Positions 7,127 to 63,765 of a stretch of DNA of 64,000 nt are shown piece after piece; positions within the stretch are counted from its first letter, which is position 1, and each line of letters opens with the position of its first letter. The translations under genes and the position numbers were made by a program. Origin of the DNA: an uncultured Bacteroidales bacterium (GTDB lineage: Bacteria; Bacteroidota; Bacteroidia; Bacteroidales; JAGOPY01); the NCBI GenBank assembly GCA_964371595.1, contig CAYJNJ010000003.1, positions 21,094 through 85,093 on the forward strand, given 5' to 3'. The notes under the pieces are model-generated. The model ran no database searches. It was given only the letters and a program-made list of their open reading frames with translations, and was not told the DNA's origin.

Positions 7127-7795
7127 TTGCAGATGATAGCCAAAGAAATAGCTACTTACGATATCCTCCCGCTTACGGTCCACGACACCATCGCCTTTGC
7201 CATGAATGCGCTGGATGAATACCGCGTCAACCATCTCCCGCTCGTCAATGAAAGGGAATTGCTGGGACTGGTTTCGGAATTCGATCTTGTCAACCATCCG
7301 GACCAGGCCGATACCGTCGGTAATATAAAGCTTTCCCTTCCTAATGCCTCTGTTGAGTCGCAGCAGCATGTTTTTGATGTGATGAAGATGATGACGGAAA
7401 TGAAACTATCGGTTCTGCCCGTGGTCGATCAGCGCAATATTTATTCAGGGCTGAGCACCCCGCAAAACCTCGGTCGTTTCCTGACACTGAATATTTCCGT
7501 TTTGAATCCCGGCGGGATCATAATCCTGGAAGTGGCAGAAAATAATTATTCTATGGCTGAGATCTCAAAGATCGTCGAATCCAATGATGCCAGGATCATC
7601 GGGGCTTTCTTCACCACCCGGACCGATTCGACCCTCATCGACCTTACCCTGAAGATCAATAATATCGACCTTAATCCTGTTATCCAGACTTTTGAAAGAT
7701 ATAATTATACCATCAAAGCCACTTTCGCTGAAAAAGATGACCTGGATGACCTGAAAGAGCGCTACGACGCCCTTATGCACTATCTTAACATCTGA
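7127..7795 (+). CDS. CBS-domain pair protein
   Basis: Two CBS-like repeats (HLPLVNERELLGLVSEFDL; LSVLPVVDQRNIYSGL) followed by a small C-terminal domain. Confidence 0.5.
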   Translation: MQMIAKEIATYDILPLTVHDTIAFAMNALDEYRVNHLPLVNERELLGLVSEFDLVNHPDQADTVGNIKLSLPNASVESQQHVFDVMKMMTEMKLSVLPVVDQRNIYSGLSTPQNLGRFLTLNISVLNPGGIIILEVAENNYSMAEISKIVESNDARIIGAFFTTRTDSTLIDLTLKINNIDLNPVIQTFERYNYTIKATFAEKDDLDDLKERYDALMHYLNI

Positions 7796-11855: not shown

Positions 11856-14539
11856 TAATCAGAAGAATGATTCCTGTAAAGTATACTAATTCAGCCCTGG
11901 CCGGTTCTGCCGTTATCCATCGGATTGCCTTCCTGTCCCTGCTTTTTACCTTATTCTTTGCCGGTACGGTCAACGCCCAGGTATCGATCGGAACTTCAAA
12001 TGTAGTCGATTATACCCGCCCCATTGAATATGAAATCGGCGGCATTACGGTTACCGGTGCCGAATACCTCGACCAGGCGGTACTCGTCATGCTTGCCGGA
12101 CTGAATGTCGGGGAAAAGGTCACGATACCAGGGGAAGAAATTACCAAATCCTTGAGAAAGCTCTGGGACCAGGGACTTTTTGAAGATCTCGGAATTTATA
12201 TCACAGATATTAAAGGTGATTTGGTATTCCTGGAATTACGGCTGAAAGAAAGGCCCAGGCTCACCAAATTCTCCCTGAAAGGCATTAATAAGACCGAGGC
12301 TGATAACATCCGTGAAAAATTGAACCTCACCAGGGGCGATGTAGTTACGGAAAGTCTGCTCATGAGCGCCAAGCACAGGATAAAAGAGCATTTCAGGGAT
12401 AAAGGGTTCCTTGATACGGAAGTCGATATTAAGCAAATTGCCGATACCACCCGTCCCAACAATGTCATCCTCGAGATCGACATAAATAAAAATAACAGGC
12501 TGAGGATCAACAAAATCCTTATTTATGGCAACAAGGAGCTAACGGCCCAGAAGATCAAGAACAGCATGAAAGAGACCAAGGAGATGGGCAAGTTCGAGCC
12601 GCTCAATGATATTGAACTTGCTTTGCTCTATGACCTGCGCGAGCTTTTCCGGCTGAACCCGCAGGGAATTGTCGATTCCACAATGGCGCACCTGAACCGG
12701 ACCGTTAAGATCAGGATCTTCAAGCCTTCCCGTTTTATCCGCAATAAGTACGAGGAAGATATTGTAAAGGTGATCGATAAATATAACAGCCTCGGCTACA
12801 GGGACGCCATGGTCGTCAAAGATTCCCTTTACAGGAATGATGAAAAATCACTGAACCTCGCCCTGACCATCGATGAGGGGGTAAAATATTATTTCAGGAA
12901 TATCACCTGGGTCGGGAATACAAAATACACTGCCGCTCAACTGAATGCTGTGCTGCGCATCAACAAAGGTGATGTGTATAACCGGGAACTGCTTGAGACC
13001 AATCTTTCTTTTAACCCGAATGAGACCGATGTCAGCTCTTTATACCTCGATGATGGCTACCTGTTCTTCTCGGCAGATCCCGTTGAAATCAATGTAGAAA
13101 AGGACTCGATCGACATTGAAGTCCGCATCCGGGAAGGCAAGCAGGCCAGGATCAACAAAGTGATGATCAGCGGGAATACCAAGACCAACGACCATGTTGT
13201 GGTCAGGGAATTAAGGACCAGGCCTGGCCAGCTTTTCAGCCGCAGCGATATCATCAGGACCACCCGTGAGCTTGCGCAGCTAAGGTATTTCGACCCGGAG
13301 AAGATTGTCCCGGATATCGTTCCAAATGCTGCCGACGGGACTGTCGATATCACCTATAAAGTTGAAGAGACCTCTTCCGACCAGATCGAGCTGAGCGGGG
13401 GATGGGGATACGGCAGGATCATTGGTACACTGGGACTTTCTTTCAATAATTTTTCCTTAAAGAATGTTTTCACCCCGGGAGCCTGGAAGCCGGTTCCTTC
13501 GGGTGATGGCCAGAAGCTGAGCCTCAGGCTGCAATCATACGGAAAAGGTTACCTCAGCTACAGCGCTTCATTTACGGAACCCTGGCTGGGCGGACGGAAA
13601 GCCAATGCATTCAGTGTCACCTACTGGCATTCCCTTTATTCTAACGGGAAATCCAAAAACGACCCGCTCAGGTCTGAGTTTATCATTAACGGTCTGACAG
13701 TTGGTCTTGGCAAAAGGCTGACCTGGCCCGATGATTATTTTACCCTTTACCAGGCTATTACCCTACAGCGATACGACCTTTACAATTATTCTCAAATCTT
13801 CCTGTTTGGCTCGGGCACCGGAGTTTACAATAATTTCAATTATAATATCATTTTTGGAAGAAGTTCGATCAGCCAGCCGATCTACCCGACTTTCGGCTCT
13901 GATGTGAACGTTTCCCTTGAGTTAACACCGCCGTATTCACTGTTTAATAATGCGGATTACACGGCTATGAGCGCCGAAGATAAATACCGCTGGATTGAAT
14001 ACCATAAATGGAAGATCAACGCGACCTTCTTTACGGAAATTTTCCCCAAGGCAGTGATCATGACAAGGGCAAAGCTGGGGTTCCTCGGCACTTACAACCA
14101 GGAACTGGGCATCACGCCGTTTGAGAGGTTCTACCTCGGTGGCGACGGGCTGTCGGGCTATAACAACCTCGATGGGCGTGAAATTGTAGGTATGAGGGGT
14201 TATATGAATGAAACCATCACGCCGGGCTATTTCTACAGCAAGAATATCGGGGGTACCATCTATACAAAATATACGCTGGAACTGCGTTACCCGCTTTCAC
14301 TCAATCCAAGCGCCACCATCTTTGCCATGGCTTTCGTGGAAGGCGGTAATTCATGGTTCAATTTTGCCGATTTTAACCCGTTCTCCGTTTACCGGTCTGC
14401 AGGCTTTGGCCTGAGGGTCTTCCTTCCGATGTTCGGCCTGCTGGGTCTCGACTGGGGCTACGGATTTGACGATGTGCCAGGTATCCCTGCGGCTAACGGA
14501 TCACAATTCCACTTTTCAATTAATTCTTCAATCGATTAG
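11852..14539 (+). CDS. bamA: Outer membrane protein assembly factor BamA
   Basis: 895 aa with a signal peptide, POTRA-length repeats and a long C-terminal barrel. ATGA overlap with uppS; followed by two skp/ompH genes. Confidence 0.85.
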   Translation: MIIRRMIPVKYTNSALAGSAVIHRIAFLSLLFTLFFAGTVNAQVSIGTSNVVDYTRPIEYEIGGITVTGAEYLDQAVLVMLAGLNVGEKVTIPGEEITKSLRKLWDQGLFEDLGIYITDIKGDLVFLELRLKERPRLTKFSLKGINKTEADNIREKLNLTRGDVVTESLLMSAKHRIKEHFRDKGFLDTEVDIKQIADTTRPNNVILEIDINKNNRLRINKILIYGNKELTAQKIKNSMKETKEMGKFEPLNDIELALLYDLRELFRLNPQGIVDSTMAHLNRTVKIRIFKPSRFIRNKYEEDIVKVIDKYNSLGYRDAMVVKDSLYRNDEKSLNLALTIDEGVKYYFRNITWVGNTKYTAAQLNAVLRINKGDVYNRELLETNLSFNPNETDVSSLYLDDGYLFFSADPVEINVEKDSIDIEVRIREGKQARINKVMISGNTKTNDHVVVRELRTRPGQLFSRSDIIRTTRELAQLRYFDPEKIVPDIVPNAADGTVDITYKVEETSSDQIELSGGWGYGRIIGTLGLSFNNFSLKNVFTPGAWKPVPSGDGQKLSLRLQSYGKGYLSYSASFTEPWLGGRKANAFSVTYWHSLYSNGKSKNDPLRSEFIINGLTVGLGKRLTWPDDYFTLYQAITLQRYDLYNYSQIFLFGSGTGVYNNFNYNIIFGRSSISQPIYPTFGSDVNVSLELTPPYSLFNNADYTAMSAEDKYRWIEYHKWKINATFFTEIFPKAVIMTRAKLGFLGTYNQELGITPFERFYLGGDGLSGYNNLDGREIVGMRGYMNETITPGYFYSKNIGGTIYTKYTLELRYPLSLNPSATIFAMAFVEGGNSWFNFADFNPFSVYRSAGFGLRVFLPMFGLLGLDWGYGFDDVPGIPAANGSQFHFSINSSID

Positions 14540-48668: not shown

Positions 48669-49376
48669 TTACGATCCCCAGCTTTCACGGTCAAGGCTCC
48701 GGTACTGGATAGCCTCGGCCAGGTGTTCGGTGAGGATTGGACTGCTGCCGTCAAGATCAGCTATGGTACGGGAAACTTTCAGGATACGGTTGTAGGCCCT
48801 GGCGGATAAATTGATCCTTTCCATGGCATTCTTCAGCAGGATGTGTCCTTCTTCCCCGATCGCACAGATGGCATGCAGCTTTTTAGAAGGGATCTGCGCA
48901 TTGCAATGGACGCCATGGCTACCTTTAAAGCGCTGTTCCTGGATTTTCCTTGCCCTGATCACCCTCTCCCTGATCGTGCCGCTGCTTTCCGAACTATTGA
49001 AATTGGTCAGCTCCCTGAACGGTACCGGGATCACTTCGACATGAAGATCGATACGGTCCATAAGCGGGCCTGAGATCTTGTTCAGGTATTTCTGGACTAT
49101 TCCGGCAGAGCAGGCGCAATCCTGTGTGGGATGGTTGTAATAGCCGCAGGGACAGGGATTCATCGCTGCTACCAGCATGAAATTGGCCGGGAACTCTATC
49201 GCCGACCGGGCCCTGCTGATCGTGATCACGCGCTCTTCCATCGGCTGGCGCAATACCTCCAAAACTGAGCGCTTAAACTCCGGCAGTTCATCCAGGAACA
49301 GCACCCCGTTCTGCGCCAGCGATATCTCGCCGGGCTGCGGAAAGGACCCGCCGCCCACCAGGCCTGCATCAGTGAT
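48669..49376 (-). pseudogene. comM: 3' fragment of comM/yifB (Mg-chelatase-like AAA+ competence protein) truncated by prophage insertion
   Basis: GEISLAQNGVLFLDELPEF (Walker B), AAMNPCPCGY and a C-terminal Mg-chelatase-C-like tail. Similarity continues upstream to ITDAGLVGGGS, then is lost at about 49,377. The Walker A half is absent. Confidence 0.75.
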
Positions 49377-50864: not shown

Positions 50865-51473
50865 ATGGCTAAAATTAAAATTCCCAACGCGGAAGTTCAA
50901 AATTTACTCTCTGGAAAATCTATTCAGTATCCAAAGTACGCTACTCAGATTGTTAATCTAGCAAATCAAAACGCTCAAGGAACCAGACCAAAAATAGTTG
51001 GTCAATTATCTGACTTAATACAGCAGTTTGAAGGTAAGAATTTAGGTGAATGGGAGGAGTGGTATTTAGATCTACAACCAACTGCTATCGATGATGCAAC
51101 AGAAAAGATTTATAAAATGGTGGAGTTGTTGAAAGAAAGCATTGAAAAGATTGATAAGCAGATTGTTAAAAATTGGGTTGAAGATTTGGTTATAACTAAA
51201 ACATTTACTGGCCTTAAGTTTCAAGAAGCGATTTTAAAAAAGATAGCGGAAAAGAATAATACAACTTATAGACTATCAACTCCAATAGAAGAAAGTCAAG
51301 GAATTGATGGATATATCGGGGATAAGCCAGTAAGTATTAAGCCAATTACATATAAGGCAAAACTCGGATTGAATGAAAGTATTAAAATACCGATGATTTA
51401 TTACGATAAGAAGAAAACCGAGATTGTTGTTGAATATGATTTTGAGTTCAGAACAACTTTGTTTGATCAATAG
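50865..51473 (+). CDS. Type II restriction endonuclease, MjaI-like (tentative)
   Basis: YPKYATQIVNLANQNAQGTRPKIVGQLSDLI...WVEDLVITKTFTGLKFQEAILKKIA...IDGYIGDKPVSIKP resembles my memory of the Pfam RE_MjaI family. Convergent with a DNA methyltransferase, with a 26-nt 3' overlap. Confidence 0.5.
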   Translation: MAKIKIPNAEVQNLLSGKSIQYPKYATQIVNLANQNAQGTRPKIVGQLSDLIQQFEGKNLGEWEEWYLDLQPTAIDDATEKIYKMVELLKESIEKIDKQIVKNWVEDLVITKTFTGLKFQEAILKKIAEKNNTTYRLSTPIEESQGIDGYIGDKPVSIKPITYKAKLGLNESIKIPMIYYDKKKTEIVVEYDFEFRTTLFDQ

Positions 51474-52521
51474 TAGGTGATTCAATTAAAGGATCTTCAT
51501 AATAATCGACTTCGAAAGAATTATCTTTTCTAATGATTGTTTTTACGTAATTAATCAGTAATTCCTTTTCTTGATTAGTTATAACTGGAAACTTATAGTT
51601 TTGATTTATATGTTTAACAGCTTCTTTTGTAGATATATAACTTATATGATTCAATAATCTGGATTGGACTATTAAATTTAGATTGTGAATTAAATTAGAA
51701 GAATTCAATTGATCTGAAATATTATCCATTAAATGTGTATCAATATCAACGCCAATACTATTTCTTCCAGTTAATATTGCAGCTAATGAAGTTGTGCCTG
51801 TTCCTACGAATGGATCTAAAACAACATCTCCTTTTACAGAATACATATTTATTAATCTATAAGGCAACTCAAATGGGAATGCAGCACTACGCTCTCTACT
51901 ATTTTTATTATTTAAGACTTGTTTAACGCCTTTAAAATCCCAAACATCAGAAAACCAGATGTTTCTTTCTTCCCAAAAGAAAGAGCTTTCTCTTCTAAGT
52001 TGTTTATCGGCTTCACTTTTAAACTCCCTCTTGCTTCCTTTCCTGAAAATCAAAATGTGTTCATGTTCCAATGTCACATATGCACCAGCTGGCAACATTC
52101 CAGACCCCATGAATTTATTTGGACTATTGGTTTGTTTCCGCCAAATTATATTAGGTAGGTTGTTTAATCCTCTTTTCCTAAAATGATTAATGATTCTTGA
52201 ATGATTTGGATATAAGTAGAAATCATTGTTAATAGTTCTTGTGGCATCTCCAATATTAATACATATAAAAGATCCATCTTTAACTATCCTTATCATTTCA
52301 TCCCAAACTTTATCAAGCTCCTGGTGCATCAGTTCAAAAGCCTCATAACCTCTATTACTAGTTAATGATTTGGATATTTCTTGGTTCTGTTGTCCCATGA
52401 TATCATCCCACATTTCAATCATTGGGTATGGCGGTGATGTTATGATAAGATTAACAGATCCATCTAAAATGGACTTAATATCCTTAGAATTAATGAAATA
52501 GAATTTATGGGTGGTCAGCAT
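51448..52521 (-). CDS. Beta-class N4/N6 DNA methyltransferase (SPPY; probably m4C)
   Basis: Motif IV is LIITSPPYP near the N-terminus and motif I is LDPFVGTGTT near the C-terminus (PF01555-type order). Confidence 0.8.
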   Translation of the reverse strand: MLTTHKFYFINSKDIKSILDGSVNLIITSPPYPMIEMWDDIMGQQNQEISKSLTSNRGYEAFELMHQELDKVWDEMIRIVKDGSFICINIGDATRTINNDFYLYPNHSRIINHFRKRGLNNLPNIIWRKQTNSPNKFMGSGMLPAGAYVTLEHEHILIFRKGSKREFKSEADKQLRRESSFFWEERNIWFSDVWDFKGVKQVLNNKNSRERSAAFPFELPYRLINMYSVKGDVVLDPFVGTGTTSLAAILTGRNSIGVDIDTHLMDNISDQLNSSNLIHNLNLIVQSRLLNHISYISTKEAVKHINQNYKFPVITNQEKELLINYVKTIIRKDNSFEVDYYEDPLIESPTIDQTKLF

Positions 52522-54803: not shown

Positions 54804-55002
54804 TTATAAACTCACATTTGGCGAAAAGGAATTTTATTTTAAATCACCTGAAGAAATGATTCACGTATATAATAAAAGGATAAAGATTGAACTAAATGAG
54901 AATGAATTAAAAAATATGAAATGTTATGTTGTTTATTATAATAAAGGGGTTGAAGAACTAACTGAATCCGATTATTTTGTAGTTGAACATTTATATTCTT
55001 AA
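54784..55002 (+). CDS. Hypothetical protein
   Basis: 72-aa ORF overlapping the previous ORF's end. Confidence 0.3.
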   Translation: MYMKNYNYKLTFGEKEFYFKSPEEMIHVYNKRIKIELNENELKNMKCYVVYYNKGVEELTESDYFVVEHLYS

Positions 55003-55160
55003 TCTAAATAAATAGCCTTCCTGGTTAACTCACCTATAGTTATATCATCGAAATCTAACATATTTAATAGGATTTGGTGTTCCCTTTTATTTAAGTTATG
55101 TTGTTTAACTAAATTTTCAATATGTTCAGTTAGTTCTTCAATCTCTTGTTGTGTTTTCAT
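54999..55160 (-). CDS. Hypothetical 53-aa protein (not in the ORF track)
   Basis: My translation is MKTQQEIEELTEHIENLVKQHNLNKREHQILLNMLDFDDITIGELTRKAIYLD. Last gene of the leftward operon, with a weak resemblance to the first helices of a LuxR/sigma region-4 HTH. Confidence 0.3.
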   Translation of the reverse strand: MKTQQEIEELTEHIENLVKQHNLNKREHQILLNMLDFDDITIGELTRKAIYLD

Positions 55161-55183
55161 ATTTATTTATTATTTTTTTAGAT

Positions 55184-55540
55184 TTATATCAATTCATTAA
55201 TTGATATAAATTCTAATTTCACTCCTTTTTTTCTTCCAATTAATTCATTAAATCCAAAAGCTGAGCCTCGTTTGAATAATTCTGATATATAAGGTAATGC
55301 TTTTATATATTTTTTTTCATCAAACTTTCGCCAATTTTTAAACATACTTTCCACTCCTTGTTGATAACAATCGTCTCTATAATCATTATCATAATAAAAA
55401 AAGTTATACATGAAATTAGTTGCTATCTTTAAAAACATATCTTCAGCTTTTTTAGTTAACATTCCTTTACCTTTTGAAAGTATAATTTCATATACTAATT
55501 CTGTATCATTAACATATAATTTTGGATTTTTTAATTTCAT
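55184..55540 (-). CDS. Sigma-70 region-2-like phage protein
   Basis: AEDMFLKIATNFMYNFFYYDNDYRDDCYQQGVESMFKNWRKFDEKKYIKALPYISELFKRG parallels the sigma region 2 pattern (..DL.QEG...L.KA..KFD....F.TYA...I...). Confidence 0.4.
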   Translation of the reverse strand: MKLKNPKLYVNDTELVYEIILSKGKGMLTKKAEDMFLKIATNFMYNFFYYDNDYRDDCYQQGVESMFKNWRKFDEKKYIKALPYISELFKRGSAFGFNELIGRKKGVKLEFISINELI

Positions 55541-55995
55541 TTCATTATTTTTATTTTTAATTTAATTGAGTATTCTGAATTATCAGCTTTAATACTACCA
55601 TCGAAAAATTCATTATTTAATGTGTTTATTTTTAATGTTGAGTTTAGTATAATTTGATATGGAAATCCAAATTTTGATAATTGAAAAAATAGGTTTTGAT
55701 TATTATATGTTCCACTATTAACTACTGGATCGTAATATGTTCCAATATTAAGTGCGGGTATAATAATACTAATAAAATTATCACTTAATGTGTCTTCTAT
55801 ATATATTTCACAATAATCACCATTAAAATTAAACCTATATGTAAATGAATTTAAATCTAAAGTATCACATATATTTTCACAATAATATAGCTTATTATCA
55901 TTTAAATAATTAGTATTAAAACTATCATCAGTTTCTTTCTGGCAACTAAATAAACCTATAATAAGCGTTAAAAAAATAATTTTAAGTGTTTTCAT
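55537..55995 (-). CDS. Phage-encoded lipoprotein
   Basis: Signal peptide plus lipobox (LIIGLFSC). Confidence 0.5.
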   Translation of the reverse strand: MKTLKIIFLTLIIGLFSCQKETDDSFNTNYLNDNKLYYCENICDTLDLNSFTYRFNFNGDYCEIYIEDTLSDNFISIIIPALNIGTYYDPVVNSGTYNNQNLFFQLSKFGFPYQIILNSTLKINTLNNEFFDGSIKADNSEYSIKLKIKIMK

Positions 55996-56058
55996 TGTTT
56001 TATTTATTTTTAATTAATTGATTATCGCTAATTTAACGATGTTTTATGAATAAAAAAA

Positions 56059-56274
56059 TTATTCGTCATTATAATTATAAAATTCAATATCATTTGGATC
56101 TACATCTTCATCTAAATCAAATTCACTAAAATCCTCATCAACATCATAAACATCCGTTAGATCTACTGTTGATAAATAATCTCTTACTATACAACAATCT
56201 TCATATTTTTCGGATTGTATTAATTGGTTTAAAAAACATTCCCATATTTCCCTTTTTTTAAGTATCATTTCCAT
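56059..56274 (-). CDS. Small protein with strongly acidic C-terminal half
   Basis: DLTDVYDVDEDFSEFDLDEDVDPNDIEFYNYNDE. Confidence 0.35.
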   Translation of the reverse strand: MEMILKKREIWECFLNQLIQSEKYEDCCIVRDYLSTVDLTDVYDVDEDFSEFDLDEDVDPNDIEFYNYNDE

Positions 56275-56286
56275 AGTGATTATTTT

Positions 56287-56796
56287 TTACATCTGAATGT
56301 TAATTTTTTGTTTTAAGTAATCCATATCTGGTATAAGCTTATCTTCCCAAGTTTCATCAAATGGTTTTTTCAACCAAGCTTTACCGTTAGTGAAAGTCGA
56401 ATTTTCAAAAACTAATAAATAGAATCCTAGATACTTTACCGTATCTTGCTTTCTTAAAATAAGATCTAGGACCCTATATAACTTTTCTTGTCCAGTCCTT
56501 AAACCAGCGTTATGTGTTTTATGATCCAGTAAAAAAAAGTTCTTATTATTTGTTGATAGGAAAGCGAAATCCAAATCACTTATTATCAATCCTGGCTTTT
56601 TCATATCCCTTAAAAGGAATGAAAAATATTCTTCTGCTTCGTGGTTATACCAATAACCTTCTGTTTTCTTTTCCATAATATATTTTTTATCTTTTTCTGT
56701 TAATTCTGATTTATGCTCATTTTGAATATATTTAGTACTTTTCAGTATATCATAATCATCTAAAAATGAGTCTAATTCATTATTTTCCATAGTCAT
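56287..56796 (-). CDS. Putative PD-(D/E)xK / VRR-NUC-like nuclease
   Basis: GLIISDLDFAF...FFLLDHKTHNAGLRTGQEKLYRVLD resembles the D...(D/E)xK...Q core. Overlaps the upstream methyltransferase ORF by 17 nt. Confidence 0.35.
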   Translation of the reverse strand: MTMENNELDSFLDDYDILKSTKYIQNEHKSELTEKDKKYIMEKKTEGYWYNHEAEEYFSFLLRDMKKPGLIISDLDFAFLSTNNKNFFLLDHKTHNAGLRTGQEKLYRVLDLILRKQDTVKYLGFYLLVFENSTFTNGKAWLKKPFDETWEDKLIPDMDYLKQKINIQM

Positions 56797-58039
56797 CTAT
56801 TCTTTTTTTGGAAATCATATAACTATCTTCTTCTAATTCAGCTCCAATACATTTTACTCCATTTATCATACAAGCAATAGCTGTTGTGCCGCCACCAATA
56901 AAAGGATCTACAACTACTTTTGGTTTAAATATTTTAACTATTTCATCAAATACATCAACTGTTTGACCCCATTCATGAAAATCCTTAGTTTCTTCATCTT
57001 TACTTTTAAAAACATCATTAAACCATTCATCTTGTTTGTGTTTATTTCCTTTATAGAAAAATAAAATTGGTTTATGTCCAGCAAATACGTTAACTGAAAA
57101 TACTTGAGATAAACCAGCTCCAGTATGAAGACAAGAGCCTATCCAATACCACTTCATACCACTATCAAGAACCCTATTAATAACTTCAGGAAGATAAGCG
57201 TGACCTGAATAAGCAATTAAGAATCCACCATCTTTAAGTTTCTTTTCAGCAAATTCACCAAGTTCTGACCAACAATTTATATAATCATAAGGATAAGGAG
57301 GATCAGTTAATATTAAATCAACTGAGTTATCTGGTATATCATCTAACACTATATTAAAATCACCTAATCTTAAATCAACTAATTCATTTTTAATAGTAAT
57401 TGATTTAGCATTTTCAATAAACTCTTGTTTAGCAGCTTCTTTCTTTTCAGTTTTAATTTCCTTTTCAGTCTCACCAGCTGTTTTTAAACCAGAAGCAATA
57501 TCAGCTAATTTTTCAGGTGCTTCTTTTTCAATCCTTTTAACTCTCCTAATAATTCCTTCACCTATTCCTAAAAATTCAGCCGCTTCTTTCTGTGAAATTT
57601 GAGCTGCGAGGGTCGGCCCTGGGGGCCCCCCACGTTTATTTTGGTTATGTCCTTTATTTTAATTAGCAATTTTTTTTGCAATTTAAGCCTTGCGGGTTTC
57701 GTTTAAATGCCTTCTTTTTAAGTTTAGTGATATAATCCATTTAAAAATATTAGGTGGATTTACTCTATTAAAAATAGGTTCAATCCCAGCTTTCTTACAA
57801 GCCTTATATCTATTCCTACCATCAATAATTTTTCCTTCATATAAATTAATTGGATTTAATAATCCATTTTCCTTTATATCTTCTACTAATGAATTGAAAT
57901 CATTATCATTCATCATAGGGAAAAAGTTTGCTAAATCGTGAAATTCATAATCAAGTTTTTTAGGTCCAAATATATCTTCCATTGTGACTTGATCAAACCA
58001 ATCTTTTAAATCTTCTATAGTTTCTTCATTTTTTATCAT
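56780..58039 (-). pseudogene. ParB-like nuclease domain - HTH - DPPY DNA methyltransferase fusion frame interrupted by two in-frame TAA codons
   Basis: ORFs 57683..58039 (GKIIDGRNRYKACKKAGIEP, RRHLNE) and 56780..57349 (LILTDPPYPY, VDPFIGGGTT) share one frame. The stretch between them translates to an HTH-like ISQKEAAEFLGIGEGIIRRVKRIEKEAPEKL. TAA stops lie at 57683-57685 and 57659-57661. Confidence 0.65.
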
Positions 58040-58043
58040 TTTC

Positions 58044-58487
58044 TTAGTTATTATTTTTTAATGAAGGATTAGTTTTTTTTATTAAATCCAACATAGCTTC
58101 AGCATTTTCTTTTGTTTTTGATTCAAACCATATCATCCAGGGATGATTAGGCATACAACATATAAAATCATCATATATTTTAGGTTTAGTATTTAGTGGA
58201 CAATTATAACAAGCTGCTTTATTATCATTTTTAGCTAAAAAATAATCACAATATCCACATCTACTAATAAGATGTTTTAATTCTGGTAAAGCATCATTTA
58301 ATCCTTCTATTGATCCATTATTATTTACAATATATTCCCATTTATTTAATACTAATTCATAAGCTTCTTGAAGTGTTGTGATTTCACTTTTATAATCGTC
58401 TTCAGCCCATTTTTCATATCCTACCCATTTTTCGGGAGTATTTTCTATATCTATTTCTTTTTTCTTTTTCTTATTAAACCATTTCAT
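58044..58487 (-). CDS. Cys-rich phage protein (putative metal-binding)
   Basis: CGYCDYF...CYNCPL...ICCMPNHPW. Confidence 0.35.
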   Translation of the reverse strand: MKWFNKKKKKEIDIENTPEKWVGYEKWAEDDYKSEITTLQEAYELVLNKWEYIVNNNGSIEGLNDALPELKHLISRCGYCDYFLAKNDNKAACYNCPLNTKPKIYDDFICCMPNHPWMIWFESKTKENAEAMLDLIKKTNPSLKNNN

Positions 58488-58499
58488 TTTAGTTATTGA

Positions 58500-58754
58500 T
58501 TATTTTTTAATGAAATGCTGATTAAATTCATCAACATCCATATCATATACTTCAGTGTTGTAATCGTTTTTATGCCTTAAATATTTCTTATCTTCTGCTA
58601 TAAAGTATGTTCCATCTACTATATCATAAAAATAAGTTTGACCCTCTATGAATATTATTAAATCTAATATATCAGTATGCTTTCCATCACCTAAATATTT
58701 TATACAGGTAACTGAATAATCATTAATACACATACATTCTTTAGTTTTATTCAT
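58500..58754 (-). CDS. Hypothetical protein
   Basis: ORF in the compact leftward operon. Confidence 0.3.
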   Translation of the reverse strand: MNKTKECMCINDYSVTCIKYLGDGKHTDILDLIIFIEGQTYFYDIVDGTYFIAEDKKYLRHKNDYNTEVYDMDVDEFNQHFIKK

Positions 58755-58762
58755 TTTTCTTA

Positions 58763-59101
58763 TTAATTAATGTTTTTAATAATTTCATCTATTAATTTTG
58801 TTCTTTTTAAGTTTTTATAAAAAGTACTTTCTTCATATAGATTTTTTGCTACACTAAAAGGCATGTTTAAATTATAACCACTTTTATTTGAATCCATAAT
58901 ATATACATATGGTTCATATTCCATATTAAACATTTTTATTATTTTAATATTTTCAGAATTTATACCATATTTTTTAAATAATTCATCTTCATAATAAGAT
59001 TCTAAAAATTGGTCAAAGAAGTAAAACGGACCATCTAATCCTACATTATAATAGTAATCATCATTTTTAATTACTTTCTTTTTTCCTTTAAACCATTTCA
59101 T
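58763..59101 (-). CDS. Hypothetical protein (shares the MKWF-Lys-rich N-terminus with 58044..58487)
   Basis: ORF. The first 14 nt are identical to those of the 58487 gene. Confidence 0.3.
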   Translation of the reverse strand: MKWFKGKKKVIKNDDYYYNVGLDGPFYFFDQFLESYYEDELFKKYGINSENIKIIKMFNMEYEPYVYIMDSNKSGYNLNMPFSVAKNLYEESTFYKNLKRTKLIDEIIKNIN

Positions 59102-59113
59102 TTTTATTTGGGG

Positions 59114-59263
59114 TTATTTTTTTGATTCTTCATCTAGCTTATCAAAGAAATCTGATAATGCCATTTTAATAATGGTGGTATAAGTGAATATACGCTTGGA
59201 TGCCTCGATTTCTAATCTATCTTTTATCCATCCATCTAATTTTATCAAATACTTTTTACTCAT
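59114..59263 (-). CDS. Ribbon-helix-helix (Arc/CopG-like) DNA-binding protein, 49 aa (not in the ORF track)
   Basis: My translation is MSKKYLIKLDGWIKDRLEIEASKRIFTYTTIIKMALSDFFDKLDEESKK. It has the beta-strand, helix, helix pattern of RHH proteins. Confidence 0.45.
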   Translation of the reverse strand: MSKKYLIKLDGWIKDRLEIEASKRIFTYTTIIKMALSDFFDKLDEESKK

Positions 59264-59282
59264 TTTATTTATTGGTTATTTT

Positions 59283-59489
59283 TTATTCACGCCAAGTATC
59301 ATAAATTTCTAATTCAAATTCTTCGTATGATATTTTATTTTCTATATAGGTTATTCTATTAATTATAACATTATTAGTTAAATTATCTTCTTCTTGTTTT
59401 CTAACAAAATCTAATAATTCTTCTAAAGTATTTATTATGATTTTAAAACTACCTGTGGATGTTGAACTATATGTAACATTAAATTCCAT
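59283..59489 (-). CDS. Hypothetical protein, first gene of the leftward operon
   Basis: 68-aa ORF adjacent to the control region. Confidence 0.3.
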   Translation of the reverse strand: MEFNVTYSSTSTGSFKIIINTLEELLDFVRKQEEDNLTNNVIINRITYIENKISYEEFELEIYDTWRE

Positions 59490-60160: not shown

Positions 60161-60296
60161 AAATTACATAGAAGAGATTGTAAAGATGTTCAATTTCACA
60201 AAGGAACAATGGGAATACTTAGATGGTATAGCCGAAGATCCACTAAAATTATATAAAGAACAAAATCAACAAAATACACCAGAAATCAATGAATAA
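60132..60296 (+). CDS. Hypothetical 54-aa protein (not in the ORF track)
   Basis: My translation begins MKKTMTPVLRNYIEEIVKMFNFTKEQWEYLDGIAEDPLKLYKEQ... Its stop overlaps the next gene's ATG. Confidence 0.3.
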   Translation: MKKTMTPVLRNYIEEIVKMFNFTKEQWEYLDGIAEDPLKLYKEQNQQNTPEINE

Positions 60297-60645
60297 AACA
60301 TATGATATAACCAATAGAATTTATTCTAATGGTTTATTAACTGATGAACTACTTAATAAGTATATTAAACAAAACATATTTGATTGTTTTATAAACCTAG
60401 AAGGAATAAAAATTAATAAAGATCTATTTAAAAAATCGGTTTTTATTATTAAAGGAAAGAAGTTTAATATAATCGAATTATATGAAGTAATTTATTATAC
60501 TCCCGAAGATTATAAAAGCGTGATGCAAATACCTAGAAATCACATAAGGATTAAATTAAAAAAGTACTCATCTCAAACATTAAATAATAATAAATCAAAA
60601 AATATAAAAATAAAATATTTAATATATAATGAAGGAAAATCCTAA
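60289..60645 (+). CDS. Hypothetical protein
   Basis: 118-aa ORF in the operon. Confidence 0.3.
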   Translation: MNKTYDITNRIYSNGLLTDELLNKYIKQNIFDCFINLEGIKINKDLFKKSVFIIKGKKFNIIELYEVIYYTPEDYKSVMQIPRNHIRIKLKKYSSQTLNNNKSKNIKIKYLIYNEGKS

Positions 60646-61910: not shown

Positions 61911-62150
61911 ATGGAAATTATAAGTGATGAGTTGAAATTACTAACAAAATATTTTATTGAACTTGGTTATAAGTTTGAAAGAATTAATTCATATACAATT
62001 GAACCTAATGGTTTTACAAACTGGTATTTTGAAAGATGGGATAATCAATATGATAGTTTATTTTTTCCAAATTATAAGGATTTTATAAATTGGAAAAGAA
62101 CTTATTTAATAGATAGGATGTTGAAAAAAGAATGTCATGTAGTTGAATAA
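61911..62150 (+). CDS. Hypothetical protein
   Basis: ORF only; overlaps the terminase start by 8 nt. Confidence 0.25.
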   Translation: MEIISDELKLLTKYFIELGYKFERINSYTIEPNGFTNWYFERWDNQYDSLFFPNYKDFINWKRTYLIDRMLKKECHVVE

Positions 62151-63765
62151 TTTAGAAGTAGCAGTTAAATATGCTAATGATGTAATCAATGATATAATTC
62201 CTTCCTGTATTTATGTAAAGCAATCTGCACAACGTTTCTTAAATGATTTAGATAGTGATAGATATTTTTATAATTCAGAAGATGTTGATCACGTTGTTAA
62301 GTTTATAAATAAACTATACTTTACAAAAGAAGGCGAACCAGAACACTTTATTCTTGAGCCTTGGCAAACATTCATAGTTGCTAATATTTATGGTATATGT
62401 AAAAGAAGTAATGAATTTAGAAAGTATAGAAATGCTTATATAGAACTTGCCCGTAAAAATGGAAAATCAGAATTGGTAACAGTATTAGCAGTGTATCATT
62501 TATTATATGATAGTGATTCACAAGTTGTATTATCTGCTAATTCAAGGGATCAAATTAAGATAGTTGATTTTCCGAAAGTAAAACAATTTAGTGAACAGAT
62601 TGATCCAAAACAAAAACGCATAATTCATTATTATAATTCAATCCAATATGGTAGAAATAAATTAATAGTAACTGCTAGTGATCCAAGTAAACTTGATGGA
62701 TTGAATGCTTCATTTTGTTTAATAGATGAGTTACACGAAGCACCAGATAACAAGATGTATAATGTTATGAAATCTTCACAGGGATCAAGATTAGAACCTT
62801 TATTCATGACTATAACAACGGCTGGGTTTGATACTGAAAGTTTTTGTTATAGTATAAGAACCACATGTACAGAAATACTTTCAGGTGAAAAATCAGATGA
62901 AACACAATTTGCTATTATATATACTATTGATCCAGAAGATAAGATAGAAGATAAAGATATATGGTTAAAGGCTAATCCAAATTTAAATGTATCTGTTAGG
63001 TATGATGCTTTAGAAGAAGCAGTAAATAAGGCTGTAAATAATGAAAGTGAAAGAAGTGGTGTAGCTGTAAAGAATTTTAATTGTTGGATGAAAAGTAATA
63101 CAGCTGAAATATGGATTCCAGAAGTTTATATAAATAATTCAATGAAGGAATTATCATTTAATGATGATATGTTTAATGATATTGAATGTATTGTTGGTGT
63201 TGATTTATCATCAGTATCAGATATAACAGCTGTTTCATATATGTTTCCAGTTGATAATGTGTTCTATTTTATCAACGATTATTACATACCAGAATGTTCA
63301 GTATCAACAAACTATAATAGGGAAATGTATAAAGAGAGTGGACAGTTTGGCCATATAAATATAACAGAGGGAAATGTTGTAGATTACAATATAATACTTA
63401 AGGATATTCAAAAAAGAAATGAAATTCATGAAGTAAGATCTATTTATTACGATAAATATAATTCAACTCAATTTGCTATAAATGCTACTGATGTTGGTTT
63501 TTATATGCAACAATTTTCACAATTAGCTGGATCCTTAAATAAACCGTTAAAAGAATTTGAAAGACTTATAAAATCAAATAGAATAATAATACAAAGAAAT
63601 CCTATAACTAAATGGATGTTGAACAATGTTGTATTGAAGATAAATCAGATGGGTAATTATTCAATTGATAAAAGTTCAAAGAATAAAAAGATAGATGGTG
63701 TAGCAGCTATGATTGATTCATTAGGTGGATATATAACATCACCAAATTATTTTAATGTTTGGTAA
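62143..63765 (+). CDS. terL: Phage terminase large subunit (Terminase_1-like)
   Basis: 540 aa with Walker A-like ELARKNGKSE, Walker B-like FCLIDELHE and a C-terminal nuclease-like region (DKYNSTQF...IDGVAAMIDS). Confidence 0.8.
   Translation: MNNLEVAVKYANDVINDIIPSCIYVKQSAQRFLNDLDSDRYFYNSEDVDHVVKFINKLYFTKEGEPEHFILEPWQTFIVANIYGICKRSNEFRKYRNAYIELARKNGKSELVTVLAVYHLLYDSDSQVVLSANSRDQIKIVDFPKVKQFSEQIDPKQKRIIHYYNSIQYGRNKLIVTASDPSKLDGLNASFCLIDELHEAPDNKMYNVMKSSQGSRLEPLFMTITTAGFDTESFCYSIRTTCTEILSGEKSDETQFAIIYTIDPEDKIEDKDIWLKANPNLNVSVRYDALEEAVNKAVNNESERSGVAVKNFNCWMKSNTAEIWIPEVYINNSMKELSFNDDMFNDIECIVGVDLSSVSDITAVSYMFPVDNVFYFINDYYIPECSVSTNYNREMYKESGQFGHINITEGNVVDYNIILKDIQKRNEIHEVRSIYYDKYNSTQFAINATDVGFYMQQFSQLAGSLNKPLKEFERLIKSNRIIIQRNPITKWMLNNVVLKINQMGNYSIDKSSKNKKIDGVAAMIDSLGGYITSPNYFNVW

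Follow-up and report, generated by a model that had tools for sequence, protein, structure and literature searches.

The window analysed here, a stretch of 64,000 nucleotides from an uncultured Bacteroidales bacterium (contig CAYJNJ010000003.1), consists of a host part and a prophage. From position 1 to ~49,400 it has roughly 45-50% GC and Bacteroidota-type genes (BamA, OmpH, T9SS Por_Secre_tail proteins, 2-oxoglutarate dehydrogenase); from ~49.5 kb to the window end it is a prophage of 22-31% GC, with TerL at 62143-63765 and the portal, protease, capsid and tail genes just past the window end. Megablast comparisons of the prophage with INPHARED phages and of the host part with E. coli returned no match. 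At the junction, the ORF at 48669-49358 (minus strand) encodes the C-terminal 229 aa of a ComM/Mg-chelatase-like ATPase, with the Pfam Mg_chelatase profile entered at position 91 of 207 and followed by Mg_chelatase_C; since the missing N-terminus is cut at the point where the AT-rich prophage begins (GC drop at ~49.4-49.6 kb), a comM-like gene appears to have been the insertion site of the prophage. At its left end the prophage carries an MjaI-family restriction endonuclease (50865-51473, plus strand; PF09568, E = 7e-68) and, convergent and slightly overlapping with it, a second N6_N4 DNA methyltransferase (51448-52521, minus strand; E = 6e-44); as judged from these matches, the two would form a type II R-M module carried beside the ParB-methyltransferase that is our subject. 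Beyond the window, GIY-YIG and HNH ORFs (12934-13476 and 17128-17445 of L004, another copy of the locus) lie scattered in the structural module, in the interval from portal to protease and among the head-tail genes; by their domains, they may be free-standing homing endonucleases.

The methylase gene lies within a tightly packed leftward operon of 13 minus-strand ORFs (54999-59489). As TAA ends 12 of these 13 ORFs (TGA ends the other), it is a functional stop here. Translation of the minus strand from 58039 to 56780 yields one 420-codon frame, without frameshift, confirming that it is interrupted by two in-frame TAA codons eight codons apart, as the initial annotation had described. The ORFs tracked in the window are 57683-58039 (118 aa, ATG start) and 56780-57349 (189 aa, GTG start); they are 333 bp apart, and there is no ATG, GTG or TTG within this gap of 111 codons. 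In the lines below, and throughout the text, the clean allele is that of a near-identical assembly described further on.

56780-58039, minus strand: ParB_N-HTH-beta-class N6/N4 DNA methyltransferase gene; 419 codons, intact, in the clean allele, split into ORFs of 118 aa and 189 aa in the window.
57683-57685, minus strand: in-frame TAA number 1, codon 119; TTA (Leu) in the clean allele, the differing base being window position 57684.
57659-57661, minus strand: in-frame TAA number 2, codon 127; TAT (Tyr) in the clean allele, the differing base being window position 57659; also present in the assembly contig NODE_672.

The conceptual protein read across both stops matches, in Pfam, N6_N4_Mtase at residues 240-411 (PF01555, 39.5 bits against a cut-off of 26.7) and ParB_N at residues 43-89 (PF02195, E = 2.5e-4, 21.4 bits, under the cut-off of 26.3). 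The DGRNRY motif of the ParB_N region lines up with the homologues, several of which, at full length, are themselves annotated with PF02195, and the ParB-like PHROGs 4715 and 12047 are hit with E = 8e-11 and 1e-9. In the methyltransferase part, D246-P-P-Y249 and DPF.GGGTT are invariant or nearly so across the homologue alignment, and the PDB relatives found are beta-class methyltransferases. The profiles phrog_21315, phrog_4715 and phrog_12047 span both stops without a break (residues 32-219), and a search of 5.8 billion proteins returned full-length single-chain homologues of ~400 aa by the hundreds, >100 of them covering ~90% of the conceptual protein, whose best database relative has 57% identity. 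The layout without frameshift that had been proposed from the sequence, a putative ParB domain, an HTH and a methyltransferase, is therefore borne out by PF01555 and DPPY, by the PHROG profiles and by the homologues; the latter hold Leu/Val/Ile and Met at the two stop positions, in agreement with the expectation that both stops occupy hydrophobic sites.

According to a survey, fusions of a ParB-CTPase-fold domain with an N6_N4 methyltransferase occur often in phages, with an enrichment in prophage regions (PNAS 2025, PMC12704722). The gene resembles the phage fusions of PHROG 67/4715/12047/21315 in its succession of a putative ParB_N (DGRNRY, RRHL), HTH, linker and beta-class methyltransferase, in its DPPY and C-terminal FxGxG motifs, and in its prophage setting; functionally it is undistinctive among them, its own oddity being a GC-rich palindrome in the linker. 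It is strongly supported that the gene, in its true form, is uninterrupted and encodes a ParB_N-HTH-N6/N4 DNA methyltransferase of 419 aa, predicted to belong to a common prophage fusion type. The role of the methylase is presumably orphan, self-protective or regulatory.

We retrieved the same locus from other assemblies via exact-protein matches of the neighbouring genes. The contig NODE_87 of ENA ERZ13693045 (356 kb, coverage 12.68x; loci L002, L004, L005, L008 and L009) is of the same strain: over 53,425 compared bases the window differs from it by 22 mismatches and 0 indels. These mismatches are very unevenly placed, as 18 of them fall in 57625-57697, 3 in 7455-7473 and 1 at 60325; the Poisson probability of 18 mismatches inside a given 73-nt segment is ~6e-44. 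At the two stop sites NODE_87 has TTA (Leu) and TAT (Tyr). The initial annotation had expected TTA behind each stop, one substitution away; this expectation holds for the first codon, which is TTA in the intact allele, and fails for the second, which is TAT. Both domains thus lie in one uninterrupted ORF in NODE_87 (419 aa; called as an intact product in loci L004, L005 and L009) and in the >100 homologues, while two TAA codons are found in the window as written; neither stop is present in the closest homologous gene (L001). A third version, in the Logan assembly of run ERR4863014 (L006, 2242 nt), also has a clean patch, and its contig terminates inside the GC-rich palindrome, which fits a coverage drop or a graph branching there in short-read data. 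The sense codons that were looked for at both stop positions, as the sign of a sequencing or assembly error, were therefore found in independent assemblies (NODE_87 and Logan), at the level of assembled contigs.

A fourth version is only partly broken. In the contig NODE_672 of ENA ERZ13692936 (59.5 kb, coverage 4.9x; loci L003, L007 and L010) exactly the nine substitutions nearest to the hairpin are present (57625-57659), and the sequence is clean at 57671-57697; the gene has the second TAA alone, which leaves a 126-aa ORF. The window's own version, a 97,926-nt NCBI contig, has all 18 substitutions. The patches of NODE_672 and of the window thus have one common start at the hairpin and unlike ends (35 nt vs 73 nt), and the broken versions are confined to the lower-quality assemblies, the 12.7x and Logan assemblies being clean. 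The lone difference at 60325 (A->T with respect to NODE_87, at a first codon position of the ORF 60289-60645) is also common to the window and NODE_672; its variant base, too, is the preceding base, and the difference may reflect a true SNP of the lineage or an error common to both contigs. Because they share the nine proximal substitutions and the 60325 SNP, the window and NODE_672 are not independent confirmations of either hypothesis, and a single read set or population may lie behind both. The features on which the comparison bears are the following.

57610-57631, no strand assigned: perfect 10-bp GC-rich inverted repeat, GGGTCGGCCC-TG-GGGCCGACCC in the clean allele; corresponds to L004 5468-5489.
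57625-57697, plus strand: patch of 18 substitutions, no indels, relative to the 12.7x assembly; spreads in the + direction from the hairpin.
57625-57659 and 57671-57697: the two halves of the patch, nine proximal substitutions common to NODE_672 and nine distal ones unique to the window.
7455-7473, plus strand: second cluster, of 3 transversions relative to the 12.7x assembly; starts 4 nt past a GGC (7449-7451).

The effect of the patch on the fit of the gene to its own family is small. With the family HMM the clean allele scores 490.5 bits and the window allele 486.7 bits; the gap is only ~4 bits because the patch falls in the variable linker, and this preference of the profile for the clean allele would on its own be weak evidence. 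The conserved Gln of the 'SQK/TQR' motif is kept in the clean allele and lost in the window.

The inverted repeat is 90% GC and contains GGC twice, at 57615-57617 and 57623-57625; as the mismatches begin at 57625, a GGC is present within 10 nt upstream of the first one. In the window copy the second arm of the repeat is altered at 57625, 57627 and 57628, these being the first three substitutions of the patch; all others follow them in the + direction. Within the 24.3 kb of prophage examined, of 28% GC, the palindrome is the only 22-mer with >=75% GC and the only GC-rich stem of >=9 bp, and as single-stranded DNA it folds with -11.9 kcal/mol (z = -3.5). An exact-pattern scan for the GC tract and its flank gave 0 matches in viral, GTDB-genome and JGI metagenome collections. 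In the coding sense the palindrome reads GSAPGPTL, within the ParB-HTH linker; the closest homologous gene (L001) lacks it. Read on the + strand, antisense to the gene, the palindrome has ACTTTTATAT after it and resembles an intrinsic terminator by its score. An antisense terminator, a protein binding site and a parS-like site are candidates for its role.

The substitutions of the patch have a definite pattern. In 12 of the 18 the window base equals the preceding + strand base (P = 5e-5 under a uniform null, P = 0.007 under a composition-weighted null). When both clusters are pooled the preceding base is matched in 14 of 21 (null mean 7.0, P = 0.0014), and one of the two preceding bases in 17 of 21 (P = 0.001); the same base-copying test on the clustered mismatches is not significant in the opposite reading direction. 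At three of the 18 patch sites, with the changes T->G, C->G and C->G, neither of these two bases is copied, a point against an artefact. Transversions account for 19 of all 22 differences (P = 1e-5, taking transitions to make up 60% of real SNPs) and for 15 of the 18 in the patch. Homopolymer smears (T8, C6, G5) are found in the window version and are missing from the clean allele. The cluster at 7455-7473 behaves alike: all three of its changes match one of the two preceding bases. In the product of the host gene at 7127-7795, a CBS-domain protein, they amount to I->S and V->G. This cluster is probably an artefact of the same type as the patch, which suggests that the window contig carries more such errors.

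A class of errors with these properties has been described for Illumina sequencing (Nakamura et al. 2011, NAR 39:e90; PMC3141275). Runs of consecutive miscalls begin at fixed starts in reads of one direction, and their triggers are an inverted repeat of >8 bp and a GGC within ~10 nt upstream; the miscalls equal the preceding reference base in 49-64% of cases, with a chance level of 25%. The cause given for these sequence-specific errors (SSE) is a lagging-strand dephasing that is itself sequence-specific, and the authors warn of false SNPs (PMC3141275). The likeness extends to each of these points: an inverted repeat of >8 bp and/or a GGC ~10 nt upstream is found both at the patch and at 7455; the patch is a sharp run of 18 substitutions with 0 gaps, a fixed start and one direction; and the preceding base is copied in 67% of the clustered mismatches (14/21; 17/21 for the two preceding bases), the null being 33%, as compared to 49-64% and 25% in PMC3141275. 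Our case is unlike the published one in that the errors are fixed in assembled contigs and not seen in mapped reads, and in that they extend over 73 nt, as against the 40-nt window analysed in that study.

These results are best accounted for by an artefact. As 18 of the 22 same-strain mismatches lie in 73 nt, with an SSE-like trigger, polarity and miscall pattern, a sequencing or assembly error is favoured, and it is very probable, in our judgement, that the two TAA codons are part of 73 nt of systematic base-calling errors, fixed when short reads of a metagenome were assembled at low coverage, and are not a property of the phage; that the stops are biological is very unlikely. Of the options offered in the initial annotation, that of a sequencing or assembly error is thus upheld by near-identical assemblies with sense codons and by the SSE signs of the substitutions. 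In the course of events that we propose, the hairpin/GGC element at 57610-57631 would stall extension in part of each cluster of + strand reads (lagging-strand dephasing), and calls downstream of the hairpin would flip to the preceding base or to G; at ~5x coverage, with a probable dip at the hairpin, dephased reads would be the only or the dominant assembly path, and the errors would enter the contigs over 35 nt in one assembly and over 73 nt in that of the window. What is seen directly is the clustering, nesting and polarity of the substitutions, the element at their start with its trigger features, the miscall signature, and a same-strain allele that is intact; it is from these that we infer the dephasing. 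The sequencing platform is presumably Illumina, and the errors would be carried by reads of one orientation. Against an artefact it can be said that an error density of 25% over 73 nt is unusual in having survived read quality control and assembly, and a very thin or one-sided coverage at the patch is therefore required. If the artefact reading is right, the proteins deposited with 118 aa and 189 aa, like that of 126 aa from NODE_672, are probably annotation artefacts.

The same patch could be a real allele, in which a hairpin-anchored tract of hypermutation or error-prone repair, or a short-patch gene conversion, has recently knocked out the ParB part in a sub-population, with the methyltransferase possibly re-initiated at GTG 57349. 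The stops are indeed present in two deposited contigs, in that of the window and partly in NODE_672, and the private SNP at 60325 is common to both, as it would be in a real lineage; the shared proximal substitutions and this SNP are equally expected from descent of a real allele, the nested patches of 35 nt and 73 nt could be recombinants of two such alleles, and the frame after the stops is fully kept, as for a very recent event. We nevertheless consider a real allele unlikely. Where the background divergence is ~1 isolated SNP per 53 kb, the 73 nt of the patch have 18 substitutions; the excess of transversions in the patch (15/18) speaks against it as well, and copying of the preceding base by two-thirds of the changes, in one direction, is a signature of the sequencer and not a known in vivo one. 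A similar mini-cluster follows another GGC in an unrelated host gene, and the stop-bearing versions occur only in lower-quality assemblies. With no canonical start between the second TAA and GTG 57349, the HTH region would be untranslated, and yet it has not decayed; the recent inactivation with re-initiation at this GTG that had been entertained in the initial annotation finds no support either, as not even all copies from the one strain share the stops. As to a donor for gene conversion, sliding the 111-nt region along the window and 21.6 kb of L004, on both strands, brought up no template repeat (the best non-self match, 51/111, is at chance level), and neither the patch nor the GC tract turned up a second time in repeat searches; the lack of a second copy argues against both a conversion donor and the template of a diversity-generating element (DGR) considered next. 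For the more specific proposal of a polar, hairpin-anchored hypermutation in vivo, for example by error-prone or dislocation-type synthesis from the GC-rich palindrome, we see a slim chance; if true, such a tract would yield nested mutated alleles in a natural population, switching the gene off.

In Bordetella phage BPP-1 retrohoming is anchored at an IMH and replaces variable lengths. A DGR-like variable region would have the GC tract as its initiation-of-mutagenic-homing end, with cDNA replacing a variable length 5' of the tract, and the patch is like DGR variable regions with a GC-rich IMH in that, on the coding strand, it is bounded at its 3' border by a GC-rich element, the variants differing in how far they extend from that border. 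It is unlike them in having neither a template repeat (none in the window and the 21.6 kb of L004) nor, among the called genes of the ~24 kb of prophage seen, a reverse-transcriptase Pfam match, and in its lack of adenine specificity: the clean allele has A at 2 of the 18 substituted bases on the coding strand. On the opposite strand it has A at 10 of 18 (8 being non-A), but the GC tract is then at the wrong (5') end. Moreover, the proximal half is identical in the two variants, unlike independent homing events, the target is an inter-domain linker and not a ligand-binding fold, and in-frame stops are normally avoided by DGR templates; mutagenic retrohoming is accordingly highly improbable. 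To a programmed recoding, in which the TAA codons would be read through, hopped or reassigned and the full-length fusion still made, we give hardly any credence. The frame is unbroken and homologous on both sides of the stops, and the context of the second stop, AAT-TAA-AAT, could by our reading in principle permit tRNA hopping; against these points, TAA is the working stop of 12 of the 13 operon ORFs, treating it as a sense codon for the most part fuses overlapping and antisense frames all over the window, and neither the same-strain copy of the gene nor the closest homologue has the stops. An Rfam scan of the whole window at the gathering threshold was without a match, and ARAGORN found in the window no tRNA and no suppressor tRNA. 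The regulated readthrough suggested earlier finds no stimulator in the RNA fold of a 161-nt stretch that surrounds the stops and reaches downstream of them (z = 0.12) and is at odds with TAA being the regular terminator of the neighbouring genes. Alternative genetic codes were ruled out on the ground that TAA terminates most neighbouring genes, and ribosomal hopping (GCT...GCT, AAT-TAA-AAT) was dropped, since a conserved helix would be lost through it and the strain has the gene without the stops.

If the two TAA codons are, as we think very probable, base-calling errors fixed in the assembly, the gene is ordinary and intact, and there is no recoding, readthrough or fresh pseudogenization to explain. 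More generally, in-frame stops in an otherwise well-kept frame of a MAG contig can represent a fixed sequence-specific sequencing error. The diagnostic signs are a dense cluster made only of substitutions, an abrupt onset at an inverted repeat rich in GC or at a GGC, a one-way spread, miscalls that copy the preceding base and an excess of transversions, all of which can be checked from the sequence and one related assembly.
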